This document shows, piece after piece, positions 3,387 to 7,488 of a stretch of DNA of 11,286 bases. The translations under genes and the position numbers were made by a program. The stretch's first letter is position 1, and the number at the start of each line of letters is the position of its first letter. Origin of the DNA: a virus (lineage: Duplodnaviria > Heunggongvirae > Uroviricota > Caudoviricetes); IMG/VR virus record IMGVR_UViG_2600254997_000012. One strand, written 5' to 3'. Below the pieces are notes generated by a model, which had not been told where the DNA came from, made no database searches, and saw only the letters and a program-made list of their open reading frames with translations.

Positions 3387-3910
3387 GCTGCCCTCCTGAC
3401 GCCCTGCCCGATCGCCATCAATGCCGCTTTGGATACAGTAGTAAACATCCGTCGAGAACTGATGAACGGTCGCCAAATCAGCAGCATGGAACCTTTGCTG
3501 TTTCCCTTCTTCTCCAGTCCTGTCGATGGTTCGACAAAATTAATCCGTCCATCAGTGATAATACGAACTTCGTCGACACTCTCCAGAGCCTTGCTGAACC
3601 ATCCGACTGACATATCCTCTGGCACAAGCATCACTACCGTCTGTCGTTGTTGTATACACTGCTCAGCGGCTTTTTCCACCCACGGCCTGATATTGCTGTA
3701 CGGTGGGTTATTCCAGATTGCACCGTGGCTTACCCACTCAGAATTTAGCGCGTCGTCAGCCTCAGTTAGCCAGTGAGCGCACAGAGCATTTTTGTCGCTC
3801 GCTGCCGAATCCAGCCAGAATCCAAACTCAATATCCAGTGCATCAAAAAGCCAAAGCGGCGTTTGCCAGCAGTCCTTGTCGTGTGCTGGCGTATTTGATT
3901 TGATAGTCAT
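3383..3910 (-). CDS. Phage-type DNA N6-adenine methyltransferase (Dam-like)
   Basis: 175 aa; [11 protein letters not shown] near N-terminus and catalytic NPPY motif ([10 protein letters not shown]), typical of small phage Dam methylases occupying the ninC/ninD slot. Confidence 0.8.
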
Positions 3911-4353
3911 GCAGCCCTACCTTTTCGTTGTGACCATTCATACTCTCGCCGGGAGTCATCACTCCACCGCACGTTGCGCTCTGAGCCGAACCAGAACATG
4001 ATTTCGATAAGCTCAGTCATGCTGGCCTTTCGCATTTTGCTGGTACGCACGCCAAGCATGACAACGCCACCGTCGATACCAGGCGCACTTCGTTGCTCCA
4101 GTTTTTTGGTCTTAAGCCACAGGGCAGTGAACAGATCTTTCCAGTCCTCCGGCGCAAGTCTCTTTCCATGCCAAAGCACCTGACGTGATACGTCCTGCAA
4201 TAACGCCCACATAAGGCGGTTTTGAGGATTGCTCCGCCTGGGTTCTTTAATGTGGACTTCGTGAGGTGACTTGTCGTCGATCGGAAGTGAGAGTATTGCG
4301 TCTATGGCGTTGTTTCTGATTGCTTCGTTGCGAAGCATGTATATTTGCTTCAT
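3907..4353 (-). CDS. ninB: Recombination protein NinB
   Basis: 148 aa; N-terminal region through ...NPQNRLMWALLQDVSRQVLWHG and C-terminal ...[19 protein letters not shown] align with lambda NinB. Confidence 0.85.
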   Translation of the reverse strand: MKQIYMLRNEAIRNNAIDAILSLPIDDKSPHEVHIKEPRRSNPQNRLMWALLQDVSRQVLWHGKRLAPEDWKDLFTALWLKTKKLEQRSAPGIDGGVVMLGVRTSKMRKASMTELIEIMFWFGSERNVRWSDDSRREYEWSQRKGRAA

Positions 4354-4375
4354 TGTTACCTCGACTTAATTCTGC

Positions 4376-4702
4376 TCATTGATACCCCCTCTCACTTAAT
4401 CGCCTCCACACTTCGTTAAACTCTTCTCGGGTTGCGCCGGATTTTCTTTCTTCAAACATCATGCATTCGCTGATGTCTCCCCATGACTTTGGTCGCTTTT
4501 CAGCAAACAGATCATCCCATTCGAATACCCAACGGCCTGATTTTCGGTAGTGGTAAATAGTCAGCCATGTTGTGCTGTTCGCCGGATACCCATAGAGAAC
4601 TTCGACTTTTTGATCACGGTCTTTATGCTTCTTCAGCAGGATAAAGCCAGCAACCAGCGAAGCTCCGGCAAGAATGATGATTGGTATTTGCCAGTCAGCC
4701 AC
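4376..4702 (-). CDS. Hypothetical membrane-anchored protein (108 aa, one N-terminal TM helix), GTG start
   Basis: ORF track; N-terminal IPIIILAGASLVAGFILL then soluble domain rich in W and charged residues. RBS GGGGGAGAG 7 nt upstream of GTG 4700-4702. Sits directly after the tR2-like terminator. No family recognised. Confidence 0.5.
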   Translation of the reverse strand: MADWQIPIIILAGASLVAGFILLKKHKDRDQKVEVLYGYPANSTTWLTIYHYRKSGRWVFEWDDLFAEKRPKSWGDISECMMFEERKSGATREEFNEVWRRLSERGYQ

Positions 4703-4717
4703 GATTTACTCTCCCCC

Positions 4718-4749
4718 AAATAAAAAGGCCTGCGATTACCAGCAGGCCT
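4718..4749 (-). terminator. Intrinsic terminator, tR2-like (after ren, start of nin region)
   Basis: Minus strand AGGCCTGC-tggtaatc-GCAGGCCT hairpin (8-bp GC-rich stem) followed by TTTTTATTT. Confidence 0.55.
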
Positions 4750-4774
4750 GTTATTAGCTCAGTGATGTAGATGG

Positions 4775-5065
4775 TCATCTTTTAACTCCATATACCGCCA
4801 ATACCCGTTTCATCGCGGCACTCTGGCGACACTCCTTAAAAATTAGGTTCGTGCTCATCTTTCCTTCCCGTTCTTCCTTGGTAGCAAACCGGTAATACAC
4901 CGTTCGCCAGACCTTACCTTCGATAACCAGAAGACCTGCCCGTGCCATTTTAGCCGCGGCCTGATTTATGCTGGTTACTGTTGCGCCTGTTAGCGCGGCA
5001 ACGTCCGGCGCACAGAAGCTATTATGCGTCCCCAGGTAATGAATAATTGCCTCTTTGCCCGTCAT
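4775..5065 (-). CDS. ren: Ren protein (lambda ren)
   Basis: 96 aa, MTGKEAIIHYLGTHNSFCAPDVAALTGATVTSINQAAAKMARAG... nearly identical to lambda Ren as I recall it. Confidence 0.9.
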   Translation of the reverse strand: MTGKEAIIHYLGTHNSFCAPDVAALTGATVTSINQAAAKMARAGLLVIEGKVWRTVYYRFATKEEREGKMSTNLIFKECRQSAAMKRVLAVYGVKR

Positions 5066-5763
5066 ACACTTGCTCCTTTCAGTCCGAACTTAGCTTTGAG
5101 TTCTGCGATCTTCGCCAGAGCCTGTGCACGATTTAGAGGTCTACCGCCCATGACAGGAAGTTGTTTTACTGGTTCAGGGATCGACTCACCACGGTTAATT
5201 CTCGCAGTCATATGGACAAGCTCATCTGCGGCCTTACGGCGTAATTCCGCATCAGTAAGCGCATTGGCCCGCATGTTCTGATACAGGTTGGTAACCAGCC
5301 AGTAGTGCGCGTTTGATTTCCACGGATAAGACTCCGCATCCGGATACAGGCCTCGCTTCCGGCAATACTCGTAAACCATATCAACCAGCTCGCTGACGTT
5401 TGGCAGTCCGGCGATAACGGATGCTTCTTCCCGGCACCATGCAACAAACTGCCCGGGTGATGGCAGAAATGGTCGATTCTGCCGACGGGCTACGCGCATT
5501 CCTGCGTTAACCTGTTCCATTGTGGTGATCCCGTTTTCCCGGAAAGCCAGAACCCACTGGCGGCGGATTTCGTTCAGTTCGTTCTGGTCACGGTTAGCCA
5601 GGCTCGCCGGGAAAGTTGCCAGTAACTGGCTGAACACACCGTTGATGATCTGCGCTACCTGTTGTACCTGCGGCTTTTCGTCGTACTGTTCCGGCATGTT
5701 GTTGGCGATCCGACGCATCTGCTCACGGTCAAAGTTAACCATCTGTGCGGCGATGTTTTTCAT
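5062..5763 (-). CDS. P: Replication protein P (DnaB helicase loader)
   Basis: 233 aa, same length as lambda P and recognisably the same sequence; overlaps O stop and ren start. Confidence 0.95.
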   Translation of the reverse strand: MKNIAAQMVNFDREQMRRIANNMPEQYDEKPQVQQVAQIINGVFSQLLATFPASLANRDQNELNEIRRQWVLAFRENGITTMEQVNAGMRVARRQNRPFLPSPGQFVAWCREEASVIAGLPNVSELVDMVYEYCRKRGLYPDAESYPWKSNAHYWLVTNLYQNMRANALTDAELRRKAADELVHMTARINRGESIPEPVKQLPVMGGRPLNRAQALAKIAELKAKFGLKGASV

Positions 5764-7104: not shown

Positions 7105-7161
7105 TTGTGAACCGCCCCGGGAATCCTGGAGACTAAACTCCCTGAGAAAGAGGTAAACAGG

Positions 7162-7488
7162 ATGACTAAAAATACTCGTTTTTCCCCCGAAGTCCGTCAG
7201 AGGGCGATTCGTATGGTTCTGGAAAGTCAGGGCGAATATGACTCACAGTGGGCGGCAATTTGTTCCATTGCCCCAAAGATTGGCTGTACACCGGAGACTC
7301 TGCGTGTCTGGGTACGCCAGCATGAGCGGGATACCGGAGGCGGTGATGGCGGGCTCACCACCGCTGAACGTCAGCGTCTGAAAGAGTTGGAACGTGAAAA
7401 TCGTGAACTGCGCCGCAGTAACGATATCCTTCGCCAGGCTTCCGCTTATTTTGCGAAGGCGGAGTTCGACCGCCTCTGGAAAAAGTGA
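7162..7488 (+). CDS. IS3-family transposase OrfA (HTH DNA-binding subunit)
   Basis: 108 aa [41 protein letters not shown]...; ends at TGG AAA AAG TGA, a candidate -1 slippage site giving an OrfAB fusion. Confidence 0.9.

Follow-up and report, generated by a model that had tools for sequence, protein, structure and literature searches.

What is the 108-codon open reading frame (ORF) that lies between the terminator tR2 and ninB in a lambda-like prophage, and what might its product do for the phage? The window, by which we mean the whole 11,286-nt stretch of viral DNA that was analysed, is a lambda-like prophage with its rightward early (PR) operon on the minus strand. A preliminary description had noted an ORF at a place where lambda has no gene, starting with GTG behind a tR2-like terminator and a strong ribosome-binding site of its own. 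Its product was read as one N-terminal transmembrane (TM) helix followed by a tryptophan- and charge-rich domain, and was proposed to be a superinfection-exclusion or toxin-like moron. We examined the ORF in its operon, across its family and at the level of predicted structure.

An extra gene behind a shared terminator block

Read along the minus strand, the window carries cro, an insertion sequence (IS) element, cII, O, P, ren, tR2 and the 108-aa ORF, followed by ninB, a Dam methylase gene, ninE, ninF, genes for a KilAC antirepressor and a DUF1364 protein, rusA and Q. The ORF occupies positions 4376-4702 of the minus strand, with a GTG start and a TGA stop, and lies between tR2 and ninB as first described; comparison with lambda confirmed that lambda has no gene there. 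The last gene before tR2 is ren (4775-5065, minus strand), recognized by its match to the Ren-like PHROG 142 (E = 3.6e-42) and by the RefSeq annotation of the E2348/69 prophage. On the other side, ninB (3907-4353, minus strand; Pfam NinB, E = 4.1e-48) starts 22 nt after the stop codon of the ORF. A Q-like antiterminator is encoded at 907-1563 on the minus strand and an N-like antiterminator at 10703-11059 on the plus strand. The region matches a prophage of E. coli O127:H6 E2348/69 at 99.8% identity, and the annotated counterpart of the ORF in that prophage is the hypothetical protein WP_000796283.1.

The GTG at 4702 is the sole workable start of the ORF, because an in-frame TAA (4706-4708) lies two codons upstream of it; the next in-frame methionine is residue 81. 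A longer native ORF was considered and rejected, as the 133-aa versions present in databases are fusions to a mini-ORF across tR2 that arise via a frameshift in a run of G. Tryptophan makes up 6 of the 108 residues, with five of the six outside the hydrophobic N-terminus, and 32 of the last 85 residues (38%) are charged, so that a tryptophan- and charge-rich domain of about 80 residues does follow the helix.

Six nucleotides 5' of the GTG stands a Shine-Dalgarno sequence, GGGGGAGAG (4709-4717, minus strand), with a predicted duplex energy of -8.8 kcal/mol against the 3' end of 16S rRNA. Ahead of it is tR2 itself (4718-4749, minus strand), an intrinsic terminator for which a terminator scan gave a stem-loop at 4726-4749, with eight pairs of which six are G-C, and a T-tract (tail TTTTATTTGG). 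The interval originally assigned to the ORF ended at 4749, which takes in the tR2 hairpin as well as the ORF. When lambda, the window and phages Sf6 and Oslo were aligned (alignment A3), a block of about 70 nt proved essentially invariant in all four, running from an ATG placed over the stop codon of the upstream gene, through the tR2 hairpin, to GGGGGAGAG. In the window this block (4709-4778) matches that of lambda except at one position, T/C at 4765, and the terminator upstream of the ORF is the same tR2 element as in lambda, Sf6 and Oslo.

The genes on either side of the block vary within this alignment. Upstream there is ren, a DnaB-type helicase gene or a primase-helicase gene; downstream, the Shine-Dalgarno sequence leads to the ninB ATG in lambda and, at nearly equal spacing, to the GTG of the ORF in the window, Sf6 and Oslo. 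Because one Shine-Dalgarno sequence precedes either the ninB ATG or the ORF's GTG, a mosaic junction must lie a few bases from the start codon. The Sf6 record carries the labels 'terminator, homology to phage lambda tR2' and 'bsq6 boundary sequence'. The ribosome-binding site is therefore strong, as had been proposed, but it is not the ORF's own, since the same conserved sequence serves ninB in lambda. A junction so near the start codon means that one block of terminator and ribosome site serves any gene recombined behind it, such as ninB in lambda and the 108-aa ORF here.

The block also contains a hydrophobic mini-ORF of 27 codons (MTIYITELITGLLVIAGLFIWGRVNRG; 4695-4778, minus strand), a putative gene that spans tR2 and whose ATG overlaps the ren stop codon (ATGA). 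Its translation matches PHROG 5907 (E = 1.3e-18), and its counterpart is gene 45 of Sf6, annotated 'similar to phage 21 NinA'.

This setting bears directly on the proposal of a prophage-expressed moron, which would be either an exclusion protein that blocks the entry of DNA at the inner membrane, like T4 Imm, P22 SieA and HK97 gp15, or a small membrane toxin. The ORF coincides with a mosaic junction, its flanking genes being direct neighbours in lambda, and like Hendrix-type morons such as lambda bor and lom it is an extra gene found in some relatives only; its product is also small, with one N-terminal membrane helix. Unlike such morons, it has neither a detected promoter nor a detected terminator. 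A scan of both strands of 4200-5200 for sigma-70 consensus sites, which would miss weak or activator-dependent promoters, returned no promoter-like site where 1.1 were expected by chance, and the 22-nt gap before ninB holds no minus-strand terminator-like site. The ORF lies instead inside the early lytic operon, past a terminator, in a position that is repressed in the prophage and with a Shine-Dalgarno sequence that it shares. The moron reading is thus not borne out at the level of gene organization.

The ORF looks more like an ordinary shuffled and dispensable gene of the lambdoid nin pool than like a self-contained moron. As with ninB-ninI of lambda and ninA-ninZ of P22, it belongs to a tightly packed series of genes between tR2 and Q on the PR-operon strand, its distribution is patchy, it is swapped as a single-gene module, and its Sf6 orthologue is dispensable (PMC5630979). 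Specifically, Sf6 deletions that take part or all of genes 46-58 give phages that are viable and lyse faster (PMC5630979). A passage of the same paper, citing Juhala 2000, puts the pool at 30-50 interchangeable genes, with about 10 per phage (PMC5630979). The nin genes are delayed-early PR genes under N antitermination, and those of lambda are non-essential (PMC10695390).

In this particular genome, normal PR-driven expression of the ORF is uncertain because of two lesions. A 1310-bp IS3-family element, flanked by a 3-bp target duplication, lies between cro and cII, and the cI-like repressor gene is frameshifted by a 1-bp deletion relative to E2348/69 that separates the HTH and peptidase domains. 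The deletion affects a homopolymer run and may reflect an error of sequencing.

A small, patchy family with varied neighbours

The ORF is a member of PHROG 5903 (E = 3.9e-75), its residues 1-108 covering profile positions 1-108 of 108, and it is the orthologue of gene 46 of Sf6 (AAQ12235.1). It is 97% identical to the Sf6 protein and to AMBK_59 of Salmonella phage Oslo; with Sf6 gene 46, PHROG 5903 and WP_000796283.1 it shares 97-99% identity, equal length and a GTG right after the tR2 block. The window copy differs from these at residue 98, where it has Val in place of a near-invariant Ala carried by at least 90% of relatives (alignment A1), and it leads directly to ninB, whereas the Sf6 copy is followed by a block of genes 47-49. 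The exact window protein is already public in many deposits and is named "hypothetical protein" in every source; the ORF is already catalogued, yet uncharacterised. A literature search on the accessions and the PHROG identifier found nothing, and a paper on the screening of phage accessory genes (PMC12373910) makes no reference to Sf6, nin or transmembrane proteins.

Pairwise dN/dS between the ORF and five orthologues ranged from 0.05 to 0.2, and the ORF is under purifying selection. The window protein contains the core motif of the family, VLYGYP-x4-TWLTIYHxR-x4-WxFEWDDLF-x3-RP. Within alignment A1, Y37, G38, Y39, P40, W46, L47, T48, Y50, H51 and R53 are invariant, as are F60, E61, D63, D64, L65, F66 and R70, while W62 and P71 are kept in at least 90% of the rows; the window protein has every one of these residues. 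The core motif holds over 25-60% identity and unrelated phage types, and it is joined by the low dN/dS and a confident AlphaFold model in arguing against a chance ORF or a decaying, functionless remnant. Such an origin might be thought to suit a gene that has no assigned function and whose orthologue Sf6 can lose in the laboratory (PMC5630979), but it is effectively refuted by this conservation.

A profile search of a library of 1.84 billion proteins returned only 38 clusters at 50% identity, and the family is therefore small. All identifiable members that were found come from enterobacterial phages or prophages. The most remote of them, at about 25-40% identity, reside in unrelated phages, and each of the 33 diverse relatives in alignment A2 also matches PHROG 5903.

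The distribution of the ORF is sporadic. It is carried by 108 of 5426 complete E. coli genomes, on the chromosome in every case, as against 2053 genomes that match a 501-bp query to which the flanks were added (tR2, ren, ninB; a match to either flank counts). Near-identical full-length copies were found in only 5 of 50,697 phage records. Because of this sporadic occurrence, the ORF is not a core nin-region protein shared by most lambdoid phages, in line with the expectation of the preliminary description. Patchiness of this kind would also suit an exclusion protein or toxin, and truncated copies of the ORF are present in some genomes, as might suit a costly gene.

A search for related loci with alignment A1 yielded close orthologues alone. 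To describe the genomic context of close orthologues, we used a set of 80 IMG/VR loci, in 77 of which the start could be located. The start codon is GTG in all 77. It is directly preceded by the tR2 and Shine-Dalgarno block in 69 of them, and in eight a 68-aa hydrophobic ORF with GGAGG takes the place of this block. Over the full set, the upstream gene encodes a DnaB-type helicase (46 loci), Ren (11), a primase-helicase (10), the 68-aa ORF (8), an HNH protein (2) or another product (3). Downstream there is a gene-47-like gene at 45 loci, NinB at 9, and another gene or the contig edge at 26. These varied neighbours indicate that the ORF is shuffled, as a module of one gene, among the replication modules and the nin modules.

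Divergent relatives in four lambdoid prophages (L009, L010, L015 and L021) occupy the same slot, between the replication genes and a downstream NinB, NinG or Q. The start codon of the L015 family member is overlapped by a Ren-like gene; in L021, the family member is followed by a NinB-like candidate gene, which has a PQN stretch, no Pfam match and no BLASTP pairing with the window's NinB. A 108-aa ORF beside ninB in L009 was rejected as a family member, being unrelated. At four other loci (L003, L004, L017 and L018), on phage contigs of 19-78 kb, the family member comes after DNA polymerase A, and a Pantoea prophage has one in its early-left region. Divergent homologues sit tightly within early operons, their start and stop codons overlapping the adjacent genes.

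Anchorless relatives (25-40% identity) occur in virulent phages, which lack a lysogenic state. They include Goslar gp199, CDS38 of the 112-kb coliphage KookSpook, and HC6_0070, which abuts the start of a DNA helicase gene; others are found in many Salmonella "seszw" genomes. In an all-against-all BLAST of the neighbours at 10 loci, no conserved partner gene appeared, and the only pairings were the Ren-like upstream gene in L015 and pairs common to closely related loci.

The repeated proximity to replication genes suggests another explanation, that the protein anchors phage DNA replication or metabolism to the inner membrane by tethering replication proteins or replicating DNA there, in the manner of p16.7 of phi29. 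The latter, a Bacillus phage protein, is early and non-essential, has an N-terminal membrane helix and a cytoplasmic domain, and is encoded near replication genes. The 108-aa protein shares this proximity and the layout of an N-terminal helix with a domain that is here predicted to be cytoplasmic. In the window its gene follows lambda P and ren; in Sf6, as in the 46 IMG/VR loci, it follows a DnaB-type helicase gene, in Oslo and L009 a primase-helicase gene, and in L003 and L017 DNA polymerase A, to which the HC6 copy adds its contact with a helicase gene. However, at least four unrelated types of replication module are represented among these neighbours, which argues against a specific replisome partner, and the copies in Pantoea, Goslar and KookSpook lie away from replication genes. 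Early operons are dominated by replication genes, so that adjacency may be meaningless. The domain is also unlike that of p16.7 in that it is not basic (pI 6.8), and it has no fold match to any DNA-binding protein, nor does any PDB entry match it in fold or sequence. We consider a replication anchor improbable.

A membrane helix joined to a conserved orphan domain

The N-terminal TM helix spans residues 5-27, with a core at residues 6-22 (4622-4690, minus strand). Residues 6-22 form the best 17-residue hydrophobic window of the protein (mean Kyte-Doolittle 2.54), and AlphaFold predicts a helix at 5-27, so the single N-terminal helix of the preliminary description stands. In the AlphaFold model (29-sequence alignment, mean pLDDT 86.8), a short linker follows, and then strands at 32-39, 46-52, 57-63 and 81-84 and a helix at 92-104. 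The conserved soluble domain (residues 32-108; 4379-4609, minus strand) is made of the first three of these beta strands, the fourth strand and the helix. Relatives at 40-65% identity retain the N-terminal helix, whose sequence is free to vary while its hydrophobicity is kept. Conservation of the soluble domain beside a freely varying helix is not what an exclusion protein of the moron type would lead one to expect.

The distribution of charge around the helix suggests an orientation. On the N-terminal side, the flank MADWQ is acidic and free of Lys and Arg, whereas the C-terminal flank has five Lys or Arg in 12 residues. Among 26 anchored relatives, the net charge of the N-flank is zero or negative in all, and the C flank has at least two Lys or Arg in 25. 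Taken with the positive-inside rule, this pattern predicts that the N-terminus is out and the C-terminus in; one hydrophobic helix with Lys and Arg on its C-terminal flank is the sequence signature of a bitopic N-out/C-in protein.

The other formats of the family argue independently in the same direction. A TM helix is present in 8 of 33 representatives and a C..H...CxxC motif in 10, and none has both. The latter motif (C-x(2-4)-H ... C-x-x-C) is placed at the N-terminus and the turn of the beta-hairpin. To judge from these soluble and zinc-ribbon-like relatives, the conserved domain is probably cytoplasmic. The N-termini of unanchored relatives were also examined for amphipathic helices that might bind membranes; their hydrophobic moment exceeded that of shuffled sequences at the 5% level in none of 12 cases.

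An opposite arrangement would make the N-terminus an export signal or a reversed anchor and place the domain in the periplasm, where its target could be, for example, the envelope or an incoming phage. The small residues in the hydrophobic N-terminus (AGAS, VAG) could resemble a cleavage region, and the domain is Trp-rich with a single Cys. We nevertheless regard a periplasmic domain as very unlikely. An acidic region before the helix that lacks Lys and Arg, and then KKHKDRDQK, reverses the arrangement of a signal peptide, and this pattern is conserved family-wide; moreover, many relatives have no hydrophobic segment, and the ten with a Cys/His zinc-ribbon-like motif show a feature typical of cytoplasmic proteins.

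Characterised nin genes act on DNA or on regulation, through recombination, methylation, nucleases or a phosphatase. A membrane-anchored product is, to our knowledge, unusual among them.

We then compared the protein with known families and folds. Foldseek against the PDB gave no match at E <= 0.001, the best E value in a profile search of PDB sequences was 0.18, and a structure search of BFVD brought up nothing beyond the family itself, namely the proteins of Goslar and IME207. The best Pfam match of the window protein was to the FG-GAP repeat (E = 0.081), below the cut-off of that model, and NCBIfam and PADLOC gave no matches for it. When 33 diverse relatives were compared with Pfam, nothing scored above threshold, one zinc-ribbon relative matching DUF1660 weakly (E = 0.0025). 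The PHROG 5903 fold is an orphan, with no relative in Pfam, NCBIfam, PADLOC, the PDB or BFVD.

These results also weigh against the proposed prophage-expressed role in superinfection exclusion or as a toxin. T4 Imm, P22 SieA and HK97 gp15 are likewise small and membrane-anchored, but the protein has no sequence or profile similarity to them (nothing in Pfam at E <= 0.08), and PHROG 5903 differs in conserving a soluble domain that is often anchorless. T4 Imm is likewise an early gene of a lytic programme. With no match in Pfam, NCBIfam or PADLOC, and with anchorless homologues among the early genes of virulent phages, the proposal of a prophage-expressed exclusion protein or toxin is not supported, and we now think it unlikely; exclusion exerted during lytic growth may still apply.

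A nin-region accessory gene and its possible role

Together, these observations identify the 108-aa ORF as a genuine gene, an accessory and probably non-essential member of the lambdoid nin region. Its reality, family, position, selection, patchy distribution and architecture are well supported, and the N-dependent timing, the topology and the mechanism of its product are predictions. As to function, we give an about even chance to a reading in which its product is a lytic-phase accessory protein, whose cytoplasmic domain binds a host or phage component and, in this subfamily, does so at the inner face of the inner membrane. The lytic-phase part of this reading follows from the operon architecture and from the homologues in virulent phages. 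The gene would be transcribed within the PR delayed-early operon and, as the first gene past tR2, its product would be made only when the N-like antiterminator permits read-through of that terminator. The expected timing would be during lytic growth or after induction, and not in the stable lysogen. Translation would proceed from the conserved Shine-Dalgarno sequence that serves ninB in lambda.

The product would be a single-pass inner-membrane protein, with its five N-terminal residues in the periplasm and an alpha/beta domain of about 80 residues in the cytoplasm. This domain may bind a cytoplasmic host or phage partner and hold, or sequester, it at the membrane; it would be the functional unit, and the anchor an optional add-on. 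A role in host takeover, counter-defence or lytic-phase exclusion, useful on some hosts only, would be compatible with such an activity. Because functional homology was not found, the proposal of a binder at the membrane is drawn from architecture and context. The near-invariant acidic, His and Arg residues (H51, R53, E61, D63, D64 and R70) may alternatively belong to a catalytic or metal-binding site, and the near-neutral pI of the soluble part, at 6.8, gives no clue to a ligand.

A bolder version, which we offer as speculative and rather doubtful, is that PHROG 5903 consists of orphan-fold early effectors in three interchangeable formats, all presenting a strictly conserved EWDDLF...RP surface that binds and neutralises one conserved host factor. 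The formats would be the membrane-anchored, the plain soluble and the zinc-ribbon one, spread over temperate and virulent enterobacterial phages, and the host factor could be a membrane-proximal component of defence or stress responses. If true, this would define a new anti-defence or host-takeover module.

On its own, the finding of this ORF adds little, as the gene is annotated in Sf6, belongs to a PHROG and has its protein deposited. The layout of the family, with an unexplained fold and three mutually exclusive N-terminal formats, suggests that the family tunes where in the cell a cytoplasmic binding domain is placed. The presence of this family in both temperate and virulent enterobacterial phages makes it a reasonable, though not outstanding, candidate for accessory-gene screens directed at counter-defence and host takeover.

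Differences between the window and the E2348/69 prophage

The prophage of E. coli O127:H6 strain E2348/69 is otherwise near-identical to the window. Within the 108-aa ORF, the sole nucleotide difference from the E2348/69 orthologue falls in codon 98 (4409-4411), which encodes Val in the window copy and Ala in at least 90% of family members (NEVWRRL versus NEAWRRL).

An IS3-family element of 1310 bp (7108-8417), absent from the E2348/69 prophage, occupies the cro-cII intergenic region. It is flanked by a TTG target duplication (7105-7107 and 8418-8420), has terminal inverted repeats TGAACCGCCCCGGG... and carries orfA (7162-7488) and orfB (7485-8375), both on the plus strand; the element lies antisense to PR transcription. 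This insertion probably disturbs the nutR/tR1 region and the expression of all downstream genes, including the 108-aa ORF.

The cI-like repressor is intact in E2348/69, where it encodes 231 aa. The window copy (8726-9426, plus strand) is missing 1 bp in an A-run (9008-9012), and because of this deletion it is split into two ORFs, one containing an HTH (8726-9106, plus strand) and the other a Peptidase_S24 domain (9052-9426, plus strand). Either this frameshift is genuine and inactivates the gene, or it reflects a sequencing error in the homopolymer.

Divergent relatives and other profile matches of the 108-aa protein

A subfamily of related proteins (P0069, P0071, P0072, P0074, P0076, P0080, P0082, P0085, P0087 and P0088) carries a C-x(2-4)-H ... 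C-x-x-C motif in place of the membrane helix, and the two features never occur in the same protein. The motif is likely to be a zinc site, which would clamp the N-terminus onto the beta-hairpin. One motif-bearing member weakly matches the Pfam prophage protein family DUF1660 (E = 0.0025).

Thirteen separate stretches of the 3904-aa protein P0075 match profile positions 53-78, which correspond to the WxFEWDDLF...RP hairpin (E = 3.1e-8). This giant may be a beta-hairpin repeat protein in which the motif is convergent.

Small hydrophobic ORFs upstream of family members

On the minus strand, a hydrophobic mini-ORF of 27 aa (4695-4778; translation MTIYITELITGLLVIAGLFIWGRVNRG) has the tR2 hairpin within its span, and its ATG overlaps the stop codon of ren (ATGA). 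It matches PHROG 5907; its counterpart in Shigella phage Sf6 is gene 45, annotated as 'similar to phage 21 NinA', and the same reading frame is present in lambda. In certain E. coli proteins (P0001, 133 aa), the mini-ORF is joined to the 108-aa ORF through a G-run frameshift. This DNA block is nearly invariant, so that coding selection is inseparable from selection on the terminator.

In several settings that are unrelated to one another, a family member is likewise preceded directly by a small hydrophobic ORF (61-86 aa), as in relative loci L023 (3334-3540, minus strand), L010 (3722-3916), L008 (3816-4001) and L009 (3671-3931). Among the 77 close-orthologue IMG/VR loci with a located start codon, eight have such an ORF (for example, L058 and L046). 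One of these small ORFs is DUF4752. Judged by eye, they resemble membrane proteins with one or two helices, and they also occur directly upstream of family members without a membrane anchor of their own. These small upstream ORFs may be partners, or their position may be a coincidence of early regions.
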